Source of the DNA: a virus
Length of the DNA stretch: 64,000 bases
IMG/VR virus record: IMGVR_UViG_2775507163_000001
Location: 2,155 to 66,154 of that record
Strand: one strand, 5' to 3'
The notes beneath the pieces were generated by a model. The model had not been told where the DNA came from. It made no database searches and worked only from the letters and a program-made list of their open reading frames with translations. Below, piece by piece: positions 5,690 to 51,195 of the stretch. The first letter of the stretch is position 1, and the number at the start of each line of letters is the position of its first letter. Both the position numbers and the translations under genes were made by a program.

Positions 5690-7042
5690 ATGCACTATAC
5701 GCAAATGCTACTGAGCAAGGCGATCGACGATAACAACGTCCAGGCGCTAACAAAATACGGCATTACAGCGAAGGATTGTGCGACGGAGGGTGATAGGCAG
5801 ACCCTCCGGTATATCCTCGATTATGCCGAGAAGAATCGCGGGCAGGCGCCCGGCTACGCAACAGTTACGGCGGAGTGTCCGGACTTCGTCTACACGCCGC
5901 AGGTGGGCGACAGCTACGAGTTTTTAGCGCGCGAAATAAAGAAGCACTCGGCAAAAGTGCAATTTGCGGAACTGGTTAACGGCAAGCTCGGCGAACAATT
6001 CGAAAATGTCGGACAAAAAGATATATTTAAGATGTTCGAATGGTTGCAATCCGAAGTCGAAAGTATTAAACTAAGAACAAGCGTTCGTAGTAAAATAGGA
6101 ACGGACATCAAATCGGACGCCGAAGCGTTCCTTGCCGAATACCGCAGGCGAAAAGACGGCGAATCCTTCAAAATATGGCGTAGCAAGTTTCCGTCCATAA
6201 ACGAACAAATTGGCGGATATCTCAGCGGTAACATGTATACATGGCACGGGCGATCAGGACGCGGTAAGTCGGTATTTACGATGGAGGAAGCGATTGAGGC
6301 AGCGGTCCAAGGCGCTAACGTACTCGTCTGGGCGATGGAAATGTCGCGCTTTGAGTGGATGGCGCGAGCCTATTCGGCAATCAGCGCCAGGGCAGGCATT
6401 GTCAACGCCAACATCGACGGCATTGATTACGAGGCAGGCTTCGAAAATCGAGCGTTGTTAACCGGCAAGCTGTCGGACGAATTCGAGGCGGGCTTCGAAA
6501 TATTCTTATCGCAAATGGCGGAAGGAGAGCACTTGGCGGGCAATATTACGCTGAGAGCTGCTGATGATGCCGACTTCTTTACGCGAGATGTGAAGCAGTT
6601 GGAGGCGGATATCCTTGCGACAAAGGCTGACGTCGTGGTCGTCGATCCGATTTACCTGATGGATTACGAGGCCAATACGTCAAAGGTTGCCGGCGGTGAT
6701 GTCGCCAATACTTCGAAGAGGATTCGGAGGCTGGCCGGACTGACTGGCGCCGTGATTCACGTTATTACTCAGGCGGACGAAGTGAAGGATGATAGGGATG
6801 ACGAAGGCAATCGTGAGTTAAGGGCTCCCAAAAGGGCGGAGATAAAAAAGACGAAAGCGGTCCTCGAGGATGCTGCGAATGTATTCGGCATTGATACGTT
6901 GGATGGCGCTGGGATCATCGAGATTGGCAAAGGGCGAAACGGCGGTGAGGGTACGCAGGTCGAAGTGTTGTATCTGCCGAATTACGGAATAGTTCGCGAG
7001 GTGGAAACCGGAGAGGCGGCCGTGAGTCAGTTCGATTTTTAG
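5690..7042 (+). CDS. dnaB: DnaB-like replicative helicase
   Basis: Walker A GRSGRGKS, VWAMEM, VVVDPIYLM, HVITQA, EIGKGRNG. Confidence 0.9.
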   Translation: MHYTQMLLSKAIDDNNVQALTKYGITAKDCATEGDRQTLRYILDYAEKNRGQAPGYATVTAECPDFVYTPQVGDSYEFLAREIKKHSAKVQFAELVNGKLGEQFENVGQKDIFKMFEWLQSEVESIKLRTSVRSKIGTDIKSDAEAFLAEYRRRKDGESFKIWRSKFPSINEQIGGYLSGNMYTWHGRSGRGKSVFTMEEAIEAAVQGANVLVWAMEMSRFEWMARAYSAISARAGIVNANIDGIDYEAGFENRALLTGKLSDEFEAGFEIFLSQMAEGEHLAGNITLRAADDADFFTRDVKQLEADILATKADVVVVDPIYLMDYEANTSKVAGGDVANTSKRIRRLAGLTGAVIHVITQADEVKDDRDDEGNRELRAPKRAEIKKTKAVLEDAANVFGIDTLDGAGIIEIGKGRNGGEGTQVEVLYLPNYGIVREVETGEAAVSQFDF

Positions 7043-7177: not shown

Positions 7178-7246
7178 TTTACACATCGTTTAGACAGGCG
7201 TAATATTATAAAGTACTCAAACATGTATATTCAAGTTTTTGAATAT
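7178..7246 (+). promoter_or_regulatory. sigma-A-like promoter plus downstream palindrome before primase
   Basis: TTTACA(7178)-17 nt-TAATAT(7201); inverted repeat ATATTCAA-N4-TTGAATAT at 7227-7246. Confidence 0.5.
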
Positions 7247-7267
7247 TTAGATGCGGAGGCATGCACG

Positions 7268-8275
7268 ATGGAACCAATACGAATACGCGGTCAGGACGTG
7301 GCGGTCGACATCCGCACCGAGCTCGAGCAATTTAATTGGGTGCGCCCGAAATGGTCGTCAGATAAGCTGATAGCAGCGAGCCCCTTCCGTTACGACAAAA
7401 CGCCGAGCTTCTTCGTTAACTTCACCGGTCAGTATGCCGGATGTTGGGGCGACTCAGGCGCATATGACGCGGAATGGGCGAGCGGCAATTTCACGAAACT
7501 ATTAAGCTTTCTTCGCAACGAAACGTATGAGGAAACCGAGGAGTACTTGCTCGGAGAATACGGTATAAACGATAGCCAAACCAATGTAATCACGCTCCGA
7601 CCGGTCCGGCTTCAAGTTCAGCGATCTAGGCAGTCGCTGAGCGCTAGTATTCTCGCAAACTATACGGAAGACTATGCGTATCTGAAATCGCGCGGCATTA
7701 GCGAGGAAGTCCAAAGGCAAATGGGCGTTCTTTATGACCGCGAAAGCAGAGCGGCAGTTATTCCGTGGTGCTCTCCGAAAAAAACTTTAGAAAGTGTGAA
7801 GTACCGCACAGTCTACGGGAAAACTTTCTGGTATCATAGGGGCGGGCGACCTATTCGCGAGTTAGTTTACGGAATTGACCAGGCGGAAGCGACAACGGTA
7901 ATCTGTGAGGCGGAAATCGACGCAATGAGCTGGCTTCAAGCGGGCTATAGTGCGGTAGCGGTTGGCGGCGCTAATTTTAACGCACAGAAGCGCGATTTAC
8001 TCTTGCGTTCGAAAATTTCAGAATTAATCATCTGTTGCGACAACGATAAAGCAGGCGGCAAACTGCGTCGGGAAATTGAAGCGGCGATGAAAGGGCATGT
8101 GCGCGTGAGGCAGGCGTATGTGAGAGCGGATGGCCACAATGACGGCTTTTTCGTCAAGGACGCCAACGAGGCGCTAGTGAAGTACGGAGTGAGTTCCTTG
8201 CGTGAGGCGGTTGAGGAAGCGAAAATTTCGGATCAGTTGTACGTGAATTTACGTACCTTTGGTCGGGGTAGGTAA
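7268..8275 (+). CDS. dnaG: DNA primase (TOPRIM)
   Basis: PFRYDKTPSF N-terminus, VICEAEIDAMS and ICCDNDKAG TOPRIM motifs, KDANEAL; ATG 7268 after GCGGAGG. Confidence 0.85.
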   Translation: MEPIRIRGQDVAVDIRTELEQFNWVRPKWSSDKLIAASPFRYDKTPSFFVNFTGQYAGCWGDSGAYDAEWASGNFTKLLSFLRNETYEETEEYLLGEYGINDSQTNVITLRPVRLQVQRSRQSLSASILANYTEDYAYLKSRGISEEVQRQMGVLYDRESRAAVIPWCSPKKTLESVKYRTVYGKTFWYHRGGRPIRELVYGIDQAEATTVICEAEIDAMSWLQAGYSAVAVGGANFNAQKRDLLLRSKISELIICCDNDKAGGKLRREIEAAMKGHVRVRQAYVRADGHNDGFFVKDANEALVKYGVSSLREAVEEAKISDQLYVNLRTFGRGR

Positions 8276-8306
8276 CGCTCTGTTCCGTTACTTACCTTTC
8301 CTTTTT
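8267..8306. terminator. hairpin between convergent primase and XRE genes
   Basis: GGTAGGTAACG / CGTTACTTACC stem followed by TTTCCTTTTT. Confidence 0.6.
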
Positions 8307-8530
8307 CGCTTGCGTTCGGACGGATCGACATAAACCCATTCGTAAAGATCGGTGATTTCGCAGCCGAGTATTTCAGCGAGATTCATTGCGCTATCGAGTT
8401 CCATTACGTTGCGTTTATTTTCCCAGCCGGAAATCGTCGATTTCGACTTTCCGATTCGGTCGCCGAGTTGTGTTTGCGTAAGACCGCGGGATTTCCGTAT
8501 GTTCCGAAGCAAGCACTTTCCGACCGCAAT
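8288..8530 (-). CDS. XRE-family HTH transcriptional regulator
   Basis: LRNIRKSRGLTQTQLGDRIGKSKSTISGWEN classic XRE HTH; start probably ATT at 8530 behind GAGGTGA RBS (ORF track uses TTG 8512). Confidence 0.85.
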   Translation of the reverse strand: MAVGKCLLRNIRKSRGLTQTQLGDRIGKSKSTISGWENKRNVMELDSAMNLAEILGCEITDLYEWVYVDPSERKRKRKGK

Positions 8531-8566
8531 CGTGGCGCTTCACCTCGCAAAAACGTATGTATTTAA

Positions 8567-8788
8567 TTATTTCGACTTGGAGCCGTCAGGAGTGAAGCGA
8601 ACTACTGCTTCGATAGGGACGTCCAGAAATAAGCAAATCTTTTCGACGGTACTTAGGTTGACGTCGCCATCACGATTAATGGCGGCGATTGTTTTCTGAT
8701 GAAGGACTATGCCACGCATGTCGCTAATCACCATCTTTTTCTCAGTTAAGGTTTTACGAAGTGGCGAAAAATCTATCATTTTAACCAT
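8567..8788 (-). CDS. Cro/C1-type HTH regulator
   Basis: DFSPLRKTL...TIAAINRDGDVNLSTVEKICLFLDVPIEAVV; divergent from aimR. Confidence 0.8.
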   Translation of the reverse strand: MVKMIDFSPLRKTLTEKKMVISDMRGIVLHQKTIAAINRDGDVNLSTVEKICLFLDVPIEAVVRFTPDGSKSK

Positions 8789-8803
8789 TTCCTTCCTAAT
8801 TTT

Positions 8804-8835
8804 ATGTATACTTTAGTGTACATTCGTGGTACAAT
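8804..8835 (+). promoter_or_regulatory. imperfect palindrome overlapping the aimR promoter
   Basis: ATGTATACTTTAGTGTACAT (8804-8823) followed by extended -10 TGGTACAAT (8827-8835). Confidence 0.55.
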
Positions 8836-8891
8836 TCAATTATAACAGACAACGGAAAAATTTAACATCATTTTTGAAAGGGGATTTCCGA

Positions 8892-10109
8892 ATGGATAAA
8901 CTGTCTAAAGAAGTTTGCGATACAATTGAAAACCACGATTATTTAACGTACAACCTAGTCGCCGAAATGATCGACGGCACTAAGGATGATATGTCAAAAT
9001 TCCATACAAATAAAAGGCAATTAAGTTTCCGTAAATTCTTACGGTTATCTTATGTTCTTCATCCGGACAACCAAAAAGAAGTGTTTGACGGATGGTGCTT
9101 GCGCTTCAATACTACGGAAGCTATAAAACAAAGCTTTGAGTATGCGTCGATCACTCGGAATAAAGAGCTTTTAAAAACGCTTATTGATAAGTATAGCGAT
9201 GACAGCGCTCTAAGTAAACACGTCGCGATTTATACCATCTTATACGATTTCTATACGAATGAGATTAGAGCGAAGGATTTAATAACCAGACTCGATAAAG
9301 TCGGGCAGTTAAAAGGCGAGTTAGTTATTTTATCCGATATCATCAAATGCTATAATTATTACTGGGCGGAAAATTACTCGTTAATGCTGGCAACTGCAAA
9401 AGAAGCCGAGAAAGAAATCAACAAATTGGGAGACAGGCAGTTATTCATCAAAGAGTGTTACTTACATAGGGTTGCCGAAGTATTAGGCCACGTTAGCCGT
9501 CATTTAAACGACATTGATTCAGCTCGTTTTTACGCTAATTTAATAATTAATGCAGATATCTGCGCGAAAACAGTTGCGGGCGCGACATATATATTAGGGA
9601 TGTCGTACTTGCCCGAAGATAAAGAAAAAGCAATTAAATATCTTCAGATAAGATACGATATCACTAAAACTCTCGGAGAGCAAGATATAGAAAATAACGC
9701 TCGACGAGATTTAGATTTCGCAAAACTCTATTTAGACATTCAACTAGACGCCGACGCCGATCCTATACTTCTCAGACTACAGAATAACGAGGGAAGCGAA
9801 TTCGAACTAAAACTAATTAGGGAGGCGGTTTTCCAGGGAGGCGACGATGAATTTTTAGTTTTCTTATGCGCTATGGCCAAAAACTCCTTAGAGAAAATGC
9901 ACGAATGTCGCAAGTACTTTTTCAAACGAGGCAACTACTTCTTTACAAGTATGGCAGCCAGAGAAGCGAAGAAGTTAGGTGAAAGTTCCGCATTGATCGA
10001 GGAATTCATTGAAATTAAAACCGAAACCAAAGGGGATGTTGAATTTGAAGAAAATTTTATTAAGTGTTTTAATCGCGTCAGCAATCATCGCAGTTCCATT
10101 AGTGCTTAG
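8892..10109 (+). CDS. aimR: AimR-family arbitrium peptide receptor
   Basis: 405 aa; N-terminal HTH-like region, all-helical TPR-like body (SFEYAS, ECYLHRVAEVLG, AYILGMSY); followed by a short secreted peptide gene; GAAAGGGG RBS. Confidence 0.8.
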   Translation: MDKLSKEVCDTIENHDYLTYNLVAEMIDGTKDDMSKFHTNKRQLSFRKFLRLSYVLHPDNQKEVFDGWCLRFNTTEAIKQSFEYASITRNKELLKTLIDKYSDDSALSKHVAIYTILYDFYTNEIRAKDLITRLDKVGQLKGELVILSDIIKCYNYYWAENYSLMLATAKEAEKEINKLGDRQLFIKECYLHRVAEVLGHVSRHLNDIDSARFYANLIINADICAKTVAGATYILGMSYLPEDKEKAIKYLQIRYDITKTLGEQDIENNARRDLDFAKLYLDIQLDADADPILLRLQNNEGSEFELKLIREAVFQGGDDEFLVFLCAMAKNSLEKMHECRKYFFKRGNYFFTSMAAREAKKLGESSALIEEFIEIKTETKGDVEFEENFIKCFNRVSNHRSSISA

Positions 10110-10182
10110 CAACGGAGGAAAAGATACTGCCAGCGAAAAAGTCGGCGGCATTGTCACTTACTCAGAGAAAGTCGGAGGTTAA
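10045..10182 (+). CDS. aimP: AimP arbitrium pro-peptide (45 aa)
   Basis: TTG start 8 nt after AGGGGA; MKKILLSVLIASAIIAVPLVLSNGGKDTASEKVGGIVTYSEKVGG*: basic N-terminus, hydrophobic signal, SEKVGG twice; overlaps the aimR 3' end by 65 nt. Confidence 0.85.
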   Translation: MKKILLSVLIASAIIAVPLVLSNGGKDTASEKVGGIVTYSEKVGG

Positions 10183-10210
10183 TCCTAGAAATAAATAAAA
10201 GAAACTCCTT

Positions 10211-10239
10211 AAGGCGGCCATTGAGGTCGTCTTTTTTTT
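10211..10239 (+). terminator. intrinsic terminator after aimP
   Basis: AAGGCGGCC-ATTGA-GGTCGTCTT stem followed by a T run. Confidence 0.8.
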
Positions 10240-10250
10240 ATGCGATTTTT

Positions 10251-10270
10251 ATGTACACTGTAGTAGACAA
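10251..10270 (+). promoter_or_regulatory. second copy of the operator-like palindrome
   Basis: ATGTACACTGTAGTAGACAA, 16/20 identical to the reverse complement of 8804-8823; upstream of extended -10 TGCTATATT at 10321-10329. Confidence 0.5.
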
Positions 10271-10379
10271 AGAGTCAGAATTGAAAGATTGCCTACTTTC
10301 TACATTTTACCAATCGCCCATGCTATATTATTTATTGTAGACACGCACCAAAAAGTTTTTAAAGAAAATTTCAAAAAAG

Positions 10380-10408
10380 TGCGCGAAAACAAAAAGTCGT
10401 GCGACATA
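10380..10408 (+). promoter_or_regulatory. phage-sigma promoter consensus copy (autoregulatory position)
   Basis: TGCGCGA-N13-TGCGACATA. Confidence 0.65.
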
Positions 10409-10441
10409 CATTATGTAGCCGATAAAACGGGAGGTAATAAA

Positions 10442-11068
10442 ATGAACGAAAGTAAAAAACTAAATATCAACCACGCAGTAGCTCGATACCTGGTAACGAA
10501 AGGCGAAGCGGATTTCAACGAAGTCTACCGCAGCCTACACGCAGAGTACCGAAAGAAGATCGCCTACTGGTCGACATCAACGTTTATGGCAAACAAACAC
10601 GACGTTATGGAGATTTTCGATGATATGTTACTCCGGTCATTGGACGCAGTTGAAAAGAATGGCGGCGACTTCGTAAAGTTATTTCACCTCTCGCTAAACA
10701 GCCGCTACAAATCGCTACTACGAAAATTGACAACACGAAGAAAATTCGAGCAATACGAAGTGGAATCAGAAGAGGATGAGAAGCCGGCAAGCTTCGAAAT
10801 CGACAGCGGATTCAGAATCGAAGAAGAAATTATCGCAAAGAAAAAAGCCGACCAGCGGCAACTGATCGACTCTCTTCTGAACGATGCGGATGCTAAAACA
10901 ACGGCAATTGTTGAAGCGTTCCTGGTAAGTGAGAATGCATCTCCGACGGCAATCGGTGAAGCTCTCGGTTTACACCATTCAACTGTTATACGCTCACTCA
11001 AACGCCTGGCCGGCAAGTTTGATTCAAAAAAGTACGGCGATTATACCGACTTTTTAGTAGCGCTTTAA
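10442..11068 (+). CDS. phage sigma-70-like RNA polymerase sigma factor
   Basis: Region-2-like FNEVYRSL...DVMEIFDDMLLR...YKSLLRK and C-terminal HTH SPTAIGEALGLHHSTVIRSLKRL; GGGAGG RBS. Confidence 0.7.
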   Translation: MNESKKLNINHAVARYLVTKGEADFNEVYRSLHAEYRKKIAYWSTSTFMANKHDVMEIFDDMLLRSLDAVEKNGGDFVKLFHLSLNSRYKSLLRKLTTRRKFEQYEVESEEDEKPASFEIDSGFRIEEEIIAKKKADQRQLIDSLLNDADAKTTAIVEAFLVSENASPTAIGEALGLHHSTVIRSLKRLAGKFDSKKYGDYTDFLVAL

Positions 11069-11074
11069 TTTTAA

Positions 11075-11148
11075 GAGGTCGGTTAGGCCAATAGGCATTA
11101 GGTCTAACCCCTCGCGTTCATTATATCAACTTAATTTCGTTTTGTATA
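11075..11148 (-). promoter_or_regulatory. convergent sigma-A promoter and hairpin after the sigma gene
   Basis: Minus strand TATACA-17 nt-TATAAT with TG extension (11148-11120); hairpin 11075-11113. Confidence 0.5.
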
Positions 11149-11246
11149 TACGTTGTCTTGACACGTAATACGATTTAATCAAATTTTAATCTTTAATATA
11201 GTACGCTATTTTCGCCAAAAACGCAACGCCAAAGGAGGCTACGAAG

Positions 11247-11414
11247 TTGGGAAAATTCTTAAATAAACGTTTCTCTTCCTATTATACGCCGGAGTACCTA
11301 AAACATACGTCGTTTGAGCGACAAATTGAGCGGTTACAACACGATCCTATCCGACTTTGCGATGGCAATAACGAAAATGTATCGATAAAAAATATAAAGG
11401 CGGTGCGACTATGA
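11247..11414 (+). CDS. small hypothetical protein (55 aa)
   Basis: AAAGGAGG RBS, TTG start, MGKFLNKRFSSYYTPEYL...IKAVRL. Confidence 0.6.
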   Translation: MGKFLNKRFSSYYTPEYLKHTSFERQIERLQHDPIRLCDGNNENVSIKNIKAVRL

Positions 11415-11505: not shown

Positions 11506-12408
11506 ATGAATCTCGAAGGGTTGACAGAGAAAGTCACTAAAGGGCGTTGGAAGACCGTTTACTACGAAGACCGGTCAGGAGAAATTGTCGCAAAAAAGTG
11601 TAGAGGAGATTGCGGCGAGGTTAAAGCGCTAGATGAATTCTCGGAACGCAATGATAAATATACTATAGGAGGGCGTGAATCAAAATGTAAAAAGTGTATG
11701 GCGGAATTAACTCGCAAATGGCGTACAAATAACAACGAACGTAATAGGGAGTACCAACGGAAATGGCACGAGGAAAATAGGGATTACCATATAGAACTTA
11801 ATAAAGAATGGCGAAAGAATAATCCGGAGTATAGGCGTAAGTACCGAGAAGAAAACAAGGAACGTGTTAAAGAAGTCGAACAGAAGTACTACAAGGAAAA
11901 CAAGGAACGAATTGCAGAGAATGCTAGAAATTGGTACCAAAATAATAAAGATCATTATATAAAGGCAAAACAAGAATACAGAAAAAATAATCCCGACAAA
12001 GTCGCATTAATCAAGCAACGTCGAAGAGCTAGAAAAATAAGTTTACCAGACGATTTCACCTCAGAGCAGATGGAAGTAACATTGTCTTGGTTTGGAGGAT
12101 GTGCATTAACCGGTGACGATGGTGATTACCATTGGGATCATGTTATACCGATAGCTACCGGAAATGGAGGAACAACTTTCGGTAATATGGCACCGCTGAG
12201 AAGCGACTTAAATATATCTAAAAATAGCGCAAACATCTTCGAATGGTTTGAGGCGAATAGGCAACGTTTCAAACTAGAACAATGGCGCTTCGATAGACTA
12301 ATAGAATGGCTTGCGTCGGCAAACGCAATGTCATTTGAGGAATATCGCGCTTATGTTTACGAATGTCATGCGAATCCAAACGAAATAAATGACGCCAAGG
12401 CGAATTAA
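11506..12408 (+). CDS. HNH endonuclease with N-terminal Cys cluster and charged repeat linker
   Basis: KKCRGDC...SKCKKC, WDHVIP...LRSDLNISK HNH core; AAGGAGG RBS; paralog of 38228..39049. Confidence 0.8.
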   Translation: MNLEGLTEKVTKGRWKTVYYEDRSGEIVAKKCRGDCGEVKALDEFSERNDKYTIGGRESKCKKCMAELTRKWRTNNNERNREYQRKWHEENRDYHIELNKEWRKNNPEYRRKYREENKERVKEVEQKYYKENKERIAENARNWYQNNKDHYIKAKQEYRKNNPDKVALIKQRRRARKISLPDDFTSEQMEVTLSWFGGCALTGDDGDYHWDHVIPIATGNGGTTFGNMAPLRSDLNISKNSANIFEWFEANRQRFKLEQWRFDRLIEWLASANAMSFEEYRAYVYECHANPNEINDAKAN

Positions 12409-23066: not shown

Positions 23067-23095
23067 TGCGCGACATTCAAATCTCGCGCGACATA
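23067..23095 (+). promoter_or_regulatory. phage-sigma promoter consensus copy before phoH
   Basis: TGCGCGA-N13-CGCGACATA. Confidence 0.65.
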
Positions 23096-38088: not shown

Positions 38089-38117
38089 TGCGCGATTTCC
38101 GATTCTCGTGCGACATA
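38089..38117 (+). promoter_or_regulatory. phage-sigma promoter consensus copy before the HNH-terminase operon
   Basis: TGCGCGA-N13-TGCGACATA. Confidence 0.65.
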
Positions 38118-38227: not shown

Positions 38228-39049
38228 GTGTTAACGCAAAAGAAAAACGGTAAAGGTACGATTTACTTCGTTGACGAAAATGACGTAATAATCTCGAAAA
38301 CTTGTACGAAGTGTAACGAGATTAAAACGCTTGATTGTTTTGCGGAAAATAAAGAAGGGCTTGGAAATAGAAGGGCGAAGTGCCTCGGATGTCATAACAA
38401 AGTGTATGCGTCAACCAAGGACTACGACGTAAGGAAACTGACGAGAGTAGCGTTAGAAACACGCGACGGAATTTCCGGAAAAGAGTGTACAGTTTGCGGT
38501 AAATGGAGTGCGCTAGGTAACTTCGCGAAGGATAGCAGAGGATTAGGCGGAAGAGAATCTAGGTGCAAGACATGTGTCGCCAAGTTTGGTCGGAAATTGC
38601 GAGAGGCTAACAAAGAACAAGAAGCGGAACGTATTCGTACTTGGAGGAAAGCCAATCCTGAAAAGGAAGCACTAAAGAAACAACGTCGGCGCGCCCGTGA
38701 GAAGAACTTACCAGACAACTTTACGAAAGAGCAGATGTCAGCGACGTTTGATTATTTCGGAGGATGCGTCTTAACGGGGGATGTCACTAATATCGATTGG
38801 GACCATGCCGTACCATTAGCGACTGGCGAGGTCGGAACAACTTTCGGCAACATGATTCCGTTGAGGAGTGACTTAAACAAGTCGAAGAATGACTCGAACA
38901 TCTTTGAGTGGTTCGCTACAAATAAAGAACGCTTTAAATTATCGCAATCTAATTTTGATAGGCTCGTAGGGTGGCTCGCTGAAGCTAACGGTATGACTAT
39001 CGAAGAATATCGGGCATATGTTTATAAATGCTTTGAAAAAACGGCGTAG
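38228..39049 (+). CDS. HNH endonuclease (paralog of 11506..12408)
   Basis: Two CxxC zinc-finger repeats; WDHAVP...LRSDLNKSK. Confidence 0.8.
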   Translation: MLTQKKNGKGTIYFVDENDVIISKTCTKCNEIKTLDCFAENKEGLGNRRAKCLGCHNKVYASTKDYDVRKLTRVALETRDGISGKECTVCGKWSALGNFAKDSRGLGGRESRCKTCVAKFGRKLREANKEQEAERIRTWRKANPEKEALKKQRRRAREKNLPDNFTKEQMSATFDYFGGCVLTGDVTNIDWDHAVPLATGEVGTTFGNMIPLRSDLNKSKNDSNIFEWFATNKERFKLSQSNFDRLVGWLAEANGMTIEEYRAYVYKCFEKTA

Positions 39050-50179: not shown

Positions 50180-50255
50180 TGTCCGATTTTGTGAAGTCAT
50201 GCGTCATACAAAATATAGACGTAGACTGCGCGACTTTGCTGAGTAATGCGACATA
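50180..50255 (+). promoter_or_regulatory. two tandem phage-sigma promoter copies before the HNH gene
   Basis: TGTCCGA-N13-TGCGTCATA (50180-208) and TGCGCGA-N13-TGCGACATA (50227-55). Confidence 0.6.
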
Positions 50256-50361: not shown

Positions 50362-51195
50362 TTGACGTTTAAATTGGCGAATACAAAAGTTTGCAAGGGT
50401 TGTTTAAAGGAGTTACCGCTGGAAAATTTCGGAGTTGCAAAAACAAACAAGGACGGAAGAGAAGGAAAGTGCCGAAAGTGTAGGGAAAATCAAAGACCTA
50501 AGGTAACTAAGACTTGCTTATACTGCGGGGAGGTTTTTCAAAATACGAGGTCTAACTCGAAATTCTGTAGTCATAAATGCCAAGGTGATTCTCGAAAAGA
50601 AAAACTTACCGTAAATTGCTCTTATTGTGGGAACGAGAAGTCAATCGTCCCTTCATTGTTTAAGAGGCTGGAAAACTTTTATTGTAATCAATCTTGCAGA
50701 ACAGAGCATTTAAAAATCATAATGCAGGCTGAAAATAACCCGAACTACGCAAGGATTAACACAAACTGCTCTGGGTGTGGGGAAAGCATAACTATTCAAC
50801 CATTTCGATTAGAAAAGCATAAATTTCAATTTTGCTCTAACGATTGTTATAAGAAAAATATCGGAAAGTTTCACAGAGGTGAAAATAACCCAATGTGGAA
50901 TGGTTCCCTCAGTAGCGAAGAAAGAATTAAAATGAGGGCACTGCCAGAATACAGAGGTTGGCGAAAAGAAGTTTATGAAAAAGATAGTTACACTTGTCAA
51001 CACTGTTTAGATAAGACTGGCGGTAACCTAGTTGCGCATCACTTGTATAGTTGGAATAGGTATCCTAATTTGCGTTTTGATGTGAACAACGGAATAACAC
51101 TTTGTAAAGACTGTCATAAGGATTTCCATAAGCACTATGGTTATGGAGATAATACTGAAGAACAGTTTGTTACATGGGAATCACTAGGACGGTAA
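50362..51195 (+). CDS. free-standing HNH endonuclease with multiple zinc fingers
   Basis: Repeated CxxC/FCSxxC; TCQHC...LVAHHL...NGITLCKDCHKDFH. Confidence 0.85.
   Translation: MTFKLANTKVCKGCLKELPLENFGVAKTNKDGREGKCRKCRENQRPKVTKTCLYCGEVFQNTRSNSKFCSHKCQGDSRKEKLTVNCSYCGNEKSIVPSLFKRLENFYCNQSCRTEHLKIIMQAENNPNYARINTNCSGCGESITIQPFRLEKHKFQFCSNDCYKKNIGKFHRGENNPMWNGSLSSEERIKMRALPEYRGWRKEVYEKDSYTCQHCLDKTGGNLVAHHLYSWNRYPNLRFDVNNGITLCKDCHKDFHKHYGYGDNTEEQFVTWESLGR

Follow-up and report, generated by a model that had tools for sequence, protein, structure and literature searches.

The DNA considered here is a 64,000-nucleotide stretch (the window) of the IMG/VR virus record IMGVR_UViG_2775507163_000001, positions 2,155 to 66,154, and it contains the lysis-lysogeny control region of a temperate phage. 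In this region the genes for an arbitrium receptor (aimR) and its pre-peptide (aimP) are followed by a gene for a predicted phage sigma factor, and the arrangement is a real, conserved and apparently unpublished arbitrium variant, with a self-activating sigma factor as its probable output. In the reading preferred here, which is given a probability of about 0.6, AimR would activate a promoter behind aimP (P1), a small Cro/C1-type protein encoded divergently from aimR (XRE1) would oppose it, and the sigma factor would lock itself on through a promoter of its own (P2). A preliminary description made from the letters of this stretch had outlined a switch of this kind; the present computational analysis adds a candidate XRE1 operator that overlaps the putative AimR operator, and a predicted sigma-type promoter inside aimR. 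The argument turns on the following features.

8288-8512, minus strand: XRE2, 74 amino acids, distal gene of the minus-strand pair (Pfam HTH_3, E 7e-14)
8567-8788, minus strand: XRE1, 73 amino acids, Cro/C1-type, divergent from aimR (Pfam HTH_26)
8892-10109, plus strand: aimR, arbitrium receptor, 405 amino acids (NCBIfam NF038310, Pfam PF22871)
10036-10182, plus strand: aimP, 48-amino-acid pre-peptide (open reading frame, ORF, and peptides of relatives)
10211-10241, plus strand: intrinsic terminator 3' of aimP (position kept in relatives)
10262-10297, no strand: candidate AimR-type long-spacer inverted repeat AGTAGA-N24-CCTACT, 5/6 complementary, its left box being the right arm of the second short palindrome (operator copy B, below)
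10321-10329, plus strand: P1, predicted arbitrium output promoter, extended -10 TGCTATATT, poor -35 (conservation, alignment with Wbeta and z1a)
10380-10408, plus strand: P2, predicted sigma-type autoregulatory promoter, TGCGCGA-N14-GCGACATA (motif repeats, co-variation)
10442-11068, plus strand: phage sigma-like gene, 208 amino acids, sigma2 and sigma4, extracytoplasmic function (ECF)-like (profile matches, homologue names, predicted fold)

The receptor scores 239.8 bits against the equivalog model NF038310 (cut-off 70), matches PF22871 with an E value of 1.8e-32 and is 36-42% identical to the AimR proteins of the Wbeta group. The aimP product has a hydrophobic N-terminus and the C-terminal end ...SEKVGGIVTYSEKVGG, with the hexapeptide SEKVGG. 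AimP-like peptides with xxxxGG or xxxxGA ends are present in all related loci, where the ends include AEKVGG, SDKVGG, ETRPGG, DIRVGA, AIKVGG, the DPGGGGH type and others; as they differ between loci, many arbitrium specificities appear to occur in the same context. The presumed mature hexapeptide is encoded twice by aimP (...TASEKVGGIVTYSEKVGG), and tandem copies are also seen in the related loci L082 (SDKVGG twice), L057, L059 and L084; tandemly duplicated pheromone pro-peptides are the topic of PMC11343458.

The conservation of this gene order was examined through the sigma-like protein, for which 193 relatives were found in the protein collection at E <= 0.001, and through 93 loci gathered by neighbourhood look-ups and two collection scans. 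The order XRE2 and XRE1 (both minus), aimR, aimP, terminator and sigma gene recurs in about 70 of the 93 loci, representing 29 distinct representatives, and is maintained even where AimR is only 22-30% identical to that of the window; the aimR-aimP-sigma synteny, whose conservation the preliminary description had proposed as a check, is thereby borne out. The same order occurs in the isolated phages vB_BauS_KLEB27-1 and phi18-2. Relatives from Paenibacillus, Brevibacillus and Salibacterium are without aimR and have a single XRE gene directly divergent from the sigma gene, which carries a P2-type promoter; in the AimR-less Paenibacillus loci this sole remaining gene is of the XRE2 type. A DNA-level search of the phage collection with positions 8200-11300 gave no match, and it was the protein-level searches that were informative. 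One locus, L036:2434-5000 (IMG/VR UViG_2822064472_000011, B. cereus group), has about 2.5 kb inserted between aimP and the sigma gene, a natural break of this junction; the insert has ORFs that look minus-strand, which points to a mobile element or intron, and a smaller gap is seen in L040.

P1 is the point at which arbitrium would connect to the sigma gene. The extended -10 reported earlier at 10321 is present and identical in 7/7 close relatives, and a similar one occurs in 24/29 representatives. Close relatives keep the order terminator, short palindrome, AT-rich stretch, TTTACTTTC, a spacer of about 23 nt and ATGCTATATT. Perfect repeats in relatives read AGTAAA-N24-TTTACT or GTAAAC-N22-GTTTAC, the GTAAAC half of the latter being the right arm of the short palindrome, and the -10 hexamer follows the end of the right box after 26-27 nt in relatives and after 26 nt in the window. 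Among the 24 representatives with a recognisable extended -10, which formed the sample for this comparison, 15 carry, at the correct position, a perfect repeat of 6 bp whose spacer measures 18-25 nt (shuffles: mean 0.74, maximum 5; about 20-fold), and these positioned repeats comprise at least 8 different box sequences. Experiments on the AimR operators of SPbeta and phi3T have shown inverted 6-bp boxes about 25 bp apart, and removing a few bp from the spacer abolishes AimR binding (PMC6458997).

Anchored on its -10, the P1 region also aligns without gaps with the post-aimP promoter of Wbeta and z1a, including GTAAAC-N22-ATTTAC and an invariant TACTTT, and by this alignment it is homologous in register to the promoter of the Wbeta-type phages, which in Wbeta and z1a reads into a small aimX-like ORF. 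In extended arbitrium systems the gene after aimP is activated in an AimR-dependent manner (10.1101/2025.11.23.689978). From sequence comparison, the proposal that P1 is the arbitrium output, reading into the sigma gene with no small ORF between, is well supported. Both boxes of the window share one A-to-G change, and at a position where relatives with AGTAAA boxes have Q, the predicted recognition helix of AimR carries D; being a single event, this matched change is no more than suggestive. The first bases of the predicted P1 leader (10336-10354, TTGTAGACACGCACCAAA) are the same in the window as in L004, L050 and L051 and differ in L006, L054 and L082; they may be a leader element or reflect recent common descent.

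The gap between aimP and the sigma gene contains no conserved ORF, in agreement with the earlier remark that no aimX-like ORF is evident. As for other features of the canonical or extended aimX output, the next gene encodes a sigma factor and lies on the same strand, and the helix-turn-helix (HTH) genes lie upstream of aimR. A hidden aimX was considered and rejected: the ORFs of the gap have TTG or GTG start codons located within the terminator, have no ribosome-binding site, are disrupted by insertions in L004 and L082, and appear conserved because the underlying DNA is conserved.

Autoregulation of the sigma gene through P2 is well supported and is the best-supported single claim of this analysis. 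The preliminary description had placed a promoter of the sigma factor's own at 10380; the motif there is real and repeated. P2 reads TGCGCG-N16-CGACATA, and TGCGCG-N16-CGAC is an ECF-like geometry. Five mismatch-free copies of TGCGCGA-N14-GCGACATA occur in the 64 kb, all on the plus strand, and shuffled sequences gave zero perfect matches. The copies other than P2 are:

9561-9589, plus strand: perfect sigma-type promoter copy inside the aimR coding sequence
23067-23095, plus strand: perfect copy before a PhoH-like gene
38089-38117, plus strand: perfect copy before an HNH/EndoVII-like gene, followed by the terminase large subunit and portal genes
50227-50255, plus strand: perfect copy before an HNH endonuclease gene, with a weaker copy at 50180

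Across loci, the -35 hexamer before the sigma gene changes perfectly with the third residue of the region-4 recognition helix:

Helix HHS(T/K/I)V: -35 TGCGCG, 37/37 loci
Helix HH(E/M/Q/Y/V)xV: -35 TGTGCG, 16/16 loci
Helix DHKQV: -35 TGTCCG, 2/2 loci
Helix HHSAV: -35 TGCGCA, 1 locus
Helix HYKKV: -35 TGTCCA, 1 locus

Such a match is what direct recognition of the promoter by the sigma factor predicts, and it is this that places autoregulation above the other claims. A repressor 'stoperator' role for TGCGCGA is less likely, given the fixed 14-nt distance to a -10-like element, the position about 30 nt before start codons and a -35 that follows the sigma4 helix. Two of the five perfect promoters stand directly before free-standing HNH/EndoVII-like genes (38228-39049 and 50362-51195), and a third such gene (11506-12408) follows the sigma gene; it seems that these mobile nuclease genes bring with them, or make use of, the promoter type of the phage itself.

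Conservation of the copy at 9561-9589 extends to the nucleotide sequence. The site precedes aimP by about 470 nt, and from this position the sigma factor would raise AimP production. A bipartite motif is found at about codons 223-235 of aimR in 26/29 representatives (a loose pattern, with some partial matches). The protein motif encoded there, I-C-A-K-T-V-S-x-A-x-Y, is general to AimR, and the aimR genes of Wbeta, z1a and MY192, which have no such sigma gene downstream, use other codons and residues and are without the DNA motif despite a similar protein. The Ala codon at this site is GCG in 24/26 sigma-linked genes, against a background of 24% of all Ala codons in these genes. Furthermore, the -10 part of the internal motif best fits the P2 of the same phage (0/5000 shuffled pairings equal the observed match), up to 17 identical bases are common to the internal copy and P2 (L054, L057, L065), and rare -35 variants are present in both copies, namely TGTCCG (L004, L011) and GCGCAA (L014). 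A conserved in-frame ATG (9600-9602, the Met of 'GM(S/T)Y') follows a few bases after the predicted start at about 9596, and a near-leaderless mRNA encoding an HTH-less C-terminal fragment of AimR is a speculative product; this Met is conserved in all AimR proteins anyway.

The preliminary description had called the gene after aimP, 10442-11068, a sigma factor, and profile matches, homologue names and the predicted fold agree. The protein matches TIGR02937 (E 1.3e-5, below the cut-off) and PHROG 1740, and many homologues are named sigma-70 family by NCBI. In the AlphaFold model (mean predicted local distance difference test score, pLDDT, 76), residues 6-103 align with sigma2 of SigW, sigmaE (including the complex with -10 DNA), CnrH and SigK (Z 7.7-8.7, root-mean-square deviation 2.5-3.6 A), and residues 136-200 align with domain 4 of sigmaA and sigma4 of SigD (Z 6.7-7.2, 1.9-2.6 A); the top 50 Foldseek matches to the model are all sigma factors. 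On this modelling the 208-amino-acid protein is predicted to be an ECF-like phage sigma factor. The strongest sigma-A-like promoter of the region (TATACA-17-TATAAT with TG) lies on the minus strand at 11075-11148 and faces the 3' end of the sigma gene in antisense orientation. Six or seven relatives keep its -10, which reads ATTATA on the plus strand, and an adjacent hairpin, and the switch could include an antisense RNA that targets sigma.

The repeated operator of the preliminary description is read differently here. Its 20-mer, ATGTATACTTTAGTGTACAT, is located at 8804-8823 over the aimR promoter; the second copy at 10251-10270, described as matching at 16/20 positions, matches at 15/20 by direct count, at 19/23 with the flanking T-run and at 17/20 in the best register. 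The elements concerned are:

8804-8823, no strand: operator copy A, ATGTATAC-TTTA-GTGTACAT, predicted short palindrome
10251-10270, no strand: operator copy B, TGTACAC-tgta-GTAGACA at 10252-10269, predicted short palindrome
8827-8835, plus strand: predicted aimR promoter, extended -10 TGgTACAAT (consensus reading; 7/7 close relatives)
8847-8839, minus strand: predicted XRE1-XRE2 promoter, extended -10 TGtTATAAT (7/7 close relatives)

Copy A adjoins the XRE1 start codon, covers the -35 region of the predicted aimR promoter and falls in the XRE1 transcript leader. Within the window alone the statistics are borderline, repeats of like quality being common in the same 2.8 kb, with 3 matches to a degenerate palindrome pattern against 0.48 expected. 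It is the comparison across loci, not the window statistics, that makes the pair solid: when the two regions are matched against each other, the best match keeps its relative position in many independent loci. For the palindrome TGTnnAC-N4-GTnnACA, the mean score among the 23 XRE1-bearing representatives is 10.5/12 next to aimR and 9.7/12 behind the aimP terminator (7.9 in shuffled sequence), whereas the six representatives with AimR but without XRE1 are at shuffle level (7.8). Similarly, within one AimR clade, L015 has both XRE1 and the palindrome beside aimR, and L005, L011, L014 and L057 are without both; Wbeta and z1a, which have no XRE1, lack the left palindrome arm and keep the long repeat.

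Since the palindrome follows the presence of XRE1, and since a 4-bp spacer fits a small Cro/CI-type dimer and not AimR (PMC6458997), the repeated 20-mer is assigned to XRE1, an assignment from sequence that is held to be about two-thirds likely. XRE1 is a small HTH protein beside divergent promoters with a short-spacer palindrome that is repeated at a second promoter, as in Cro/CI-type arrangements, and it is predicted to bind there. The degenerate right arm of copy B is read as a compromise with its second role as the left box for AimR. Two tandem short palindromes after the aimP terminator in L004 (L004:5800-5850) and L082 (e.g. AATGTACACTTTAGTAAAC then TGTTCACTGTAGTAAACA) suggest cooperative binding of XRE1. 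Two other readings of the short palindrome were set aside. The LexA (Cheo) consensus is GAAC-N4-GTTC, whereas the palindrome has the order GTTC...GAAC or, in the window, no GAAC at all. Peptide-bound AimR on the short palindrome is disfavoured by the closed form of the protein, which keeps the recognition helices about 75 A apart (PMC6458997).

Taken together, the predicted elements would operate as follows. On infection, peptide-free AimR would bind the long repeat and activate P1, with its poor -35 and extended -10; the first sigma molecules would then fire P2, giving positive feedback, the other sigma-type promoters, leading to lytic commitment, and the promoter inside aimR, leading to more AimP export. 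In later infections, AimR loaded with SEKVGG would be unable to span its operator and P1 would stay silent. XRE1, made from the minus-strand promoter, would occupy both short palindromes, shutting down aimR and blocking the left half-site of AimR at P1, and the sigma gene would be held off in the lysogen. Bistability and peptide control of the switch are what we infer from this layout; a search for RNA runs containing this DNA gave no match. In a broader form, to which even odds are given, arbitrium would be a portable cassette (XRE1, aimR, aimP and the AimR-activated promoter) placed before an older switch formed by a repressor and a self-activating ECF-like sigma factor; sigma would be the output and would in turn drive aimP, and XRE1 and AimR would compete at the output promoter.

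Several observations weigh against the preferred reading, and the alternatives draw on them. The loci without XRE1 belong to two clades only, and the half-site of the palindrome (TGTnnAC, or ATGT(T/A)(C/T)AC) resembles the AimR boxes and the phi3T AimR box ATGTTC (PMC6458997), so that a single protein could bind all three half-sites. This resemblance would suit AimR itself binding the 20-mer at both places, autoregulating its own gene and gating the sigma gene, as would the arm that the second copy shares with the long repeat and the location of both copies at promoters of arbitrium genes. Such a role is nevertheless unlikely: in solved or footprinted AimR operators the boxes stand about 25 bp apart, and a spacer only a few bp shorter abolishes binding (PMC6458997), loci that keep AimR and are missing XRE1 have the palindrome in neither region, L015 of the same AimR clade, which has XRE1, does have it, and the long repeat persists without the left palindrome arm in Wbeta and z1a. 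The earlier proposal that AimR or the divergent Cro-like protein gates sigma through the 20-mer stands in part: synteny and the homology of P1 indicate that the arbitrium output position reads into the sigma gene, but the 20-mer as the wire from AimR is probably wrong, given its 4-bp spacer, its co-occurrence with XRE1 and the presence of a separate long repeat, and the Cro-like protein was the better half of the proposal. No likelier is an arrangement in which the sigma gene answers to the XRE repressors only, with P1 constitutive or repressor-gated, arbitrium acting elsewhere (e.g. on XRE1 or through protein contacts) and the synteny marking a cassette insertion site. The AimR-less relatives run an XRE/sigma pair without arbitrium; their sigma gene has a P2-type promoter only, which means that host RNA polymerase must start sigma expression somehow and weakens the need for P1. 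In addition, the long repeat of the window itself is imperfect at 5/6, and 9/24 representatives are without a perfectly positioned one. Against this stand the register of P1 with the Wbeta-type post-aimP promoter, both boxes included, the roughly 20-fold enrichment of the positioned long repeat, the poor -35 of P1, which is typical of activator-dependent promoters, and the sigma-type promoter inside aimR, which joins the two modules functionally.

The identity of the sigma factor is also a point of doubt, as it comes from a fold prediction (pLDDT 76), hidden Markov model matches below the family cut-offs and co-variation, and a profile search of PDB sequences with the sigma alignment matched no sigma factor. 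As to the regulon, the strong sigma-type promoters number just five, and PhoH or HNH genes follow three of these. The protein could instead be a DNA-binding activator on TGCGCG at the -35, with host sigma-A reading the -10; a TATAAT-like -10 in several relatives and the need of AimR-less phages for some start of expression would fit this. It is nonetheless the least probable of the alternatives. The N-terminal domain fits sigma2, including region 2 of sigmaE on -10 DNA (Z 8.1-8.7), every one of the top structural matches is a sigma factor, and the -10 part of the promoter also varies between phages together with the variable N-terminal half. The geometry TGCGCG-N16-CGAC/CGTC is, furthermore, that of ECF promoters, as in the B. 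subtilis sigX, sigM and sigW promoters.

The wider setting of the region is that of an integrated temperate siphophage, as indicated by a large serine recombinase (serine integrase) gene on the minus strand immediately left of the window together with terminase, portal and major head genes at 39-46 kb of the window. The phage measures about 65-70 kb and is a member of a family that is widespread in Bacillaceae. The window corresponds to C44:12172-76171 in a 5.6-Mb genome of 39% G+C and itself has 45% G+C, and nearly all of its genes lie on the plus strand. Neighbouring genes of the control region are:

5690-7042, plus strand: DnaB-like helicase
7223-8275, plus strand: primase
11506-12408, plus strand: HNH/EndoVII-like gene

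Downstream of the sigma gene, this HNH endonuclease gene is accompanied by others, including a 741-amino-acid ORF where relatives have DNA_pol_A. In the clade with the DPGGGGH peptide (L005, L011, L014, L057; about 4260-4420 in L005), a small plus-strand HTH_17-like gene replaces XRE1 upstream of aimR, and the long-spacer repeats have the unrelated boxes TTTCAG, TTTAGT and AGTTGA.

Parallels to parts of this circuit can be found in known systems. The autoregulated ECF sigma factors SigW, SigX and SigM of B. subtilis share the sigma2-sigma4 composition, a hexamer-N16-CGAC/CGTC promoter and a cognate promoter before the gene; unlike them, the system described here has no evident anti-sigma gene, has a -35 of TGCGCG and not a TGAAAC-like one, is phage-borne and is proposed to be gated by a quorum-sensing receptor. 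In the Rap-Phr systems of B. subtilis, sigma-H-dependent phr promoters lie inside rap genes. The likeness is an alternative-sigma promoter in a receptor gene that drives extra expression of a downstream signalling peptide; unlike in Rap-Phr, the sigma factor here is phage-encoded and presumed to be the output of the receptor. With a promoter in aimR as well, the loop between the decision of the cell and the signal of the population would be closed.

A further close system is extended arbitrium (aimR-aimP-aimX with convergent aimC/aimL, in phi106, phiW23 and Wbeta-type phages; 10.1101/2025.11.23.689978), which has the same receptor and peptide families. Behind its terminator lies an output promoter homologous to P1, in which the two boxes, their spacing and TACTTT are shared. 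However, its output is an antirepressor of 29-80 amino acids, whereas here it is a sigma factor of about 208 amino acids, and it has a convergent HTH repressor gene downstream, where the present family has none and carries two small XRE genes upstream, divergent from aimR. The extra short palindrome over the left AimR box and the sigma-type promoter inside aimR are further differences. With the SPbeta/phi3T type, in which AimR, AimP and AimX act via MazF and the SroF/YopR repressor, the present system shares the xxxxG(G/A) peptide type and, in candidate form, the AimR operator layout 3' of aimP, in which a long AT-rich spacer separates inverted boxes of 6 bp (PMC6458997). It departs from that type in its spacer (22-24 bp, against 25 bp), in having no aimX, in its proposed output, a transcription initiation factor under positive feedback, and in its phage backbone, which is about 65 kb long and encodes a DnaB, a primase and a PolA of its own. 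Full-text literature searches combining arbitrium and sigma returned no title or abstract with such wiring, and the full text of a review and of a recent study likewise contained none; Stokar-Avihail et al. 2019 (Cell Host Microbe) lay outside this scope.

According to Kabel et al. 2025 (10.1101/2025.11.23.689978), the aimX/aimC/aimL type accounts for about 75% of arbitrium systems and the SPbeta type for about 4%, and a generic 'RP' architecture is left unexplained. The route from AimR to the decision is settled for SPbeta-like phages and, recently, for the aimX-antirepressor type, and other architectures are unexplained (10.1101/2025.11.23.689978). The family described here would provide a third and simple answer, in which the receptor turns on a self-amplifying sigma factor, and if the portable-cassette reading is true, part of the 'RP' class would be explained. 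It makes testable predictions, namely a peptide-sensitive promoter, a specificity code of one helix residue and one -35 base, and a working promoter within the receptor gene, and the isolated phages KLEB27-1 and phi18-2 exist for experimental work. More broadly, a communication cassette of this type may plug into different downstream effectors while its operator and promoter are retained.

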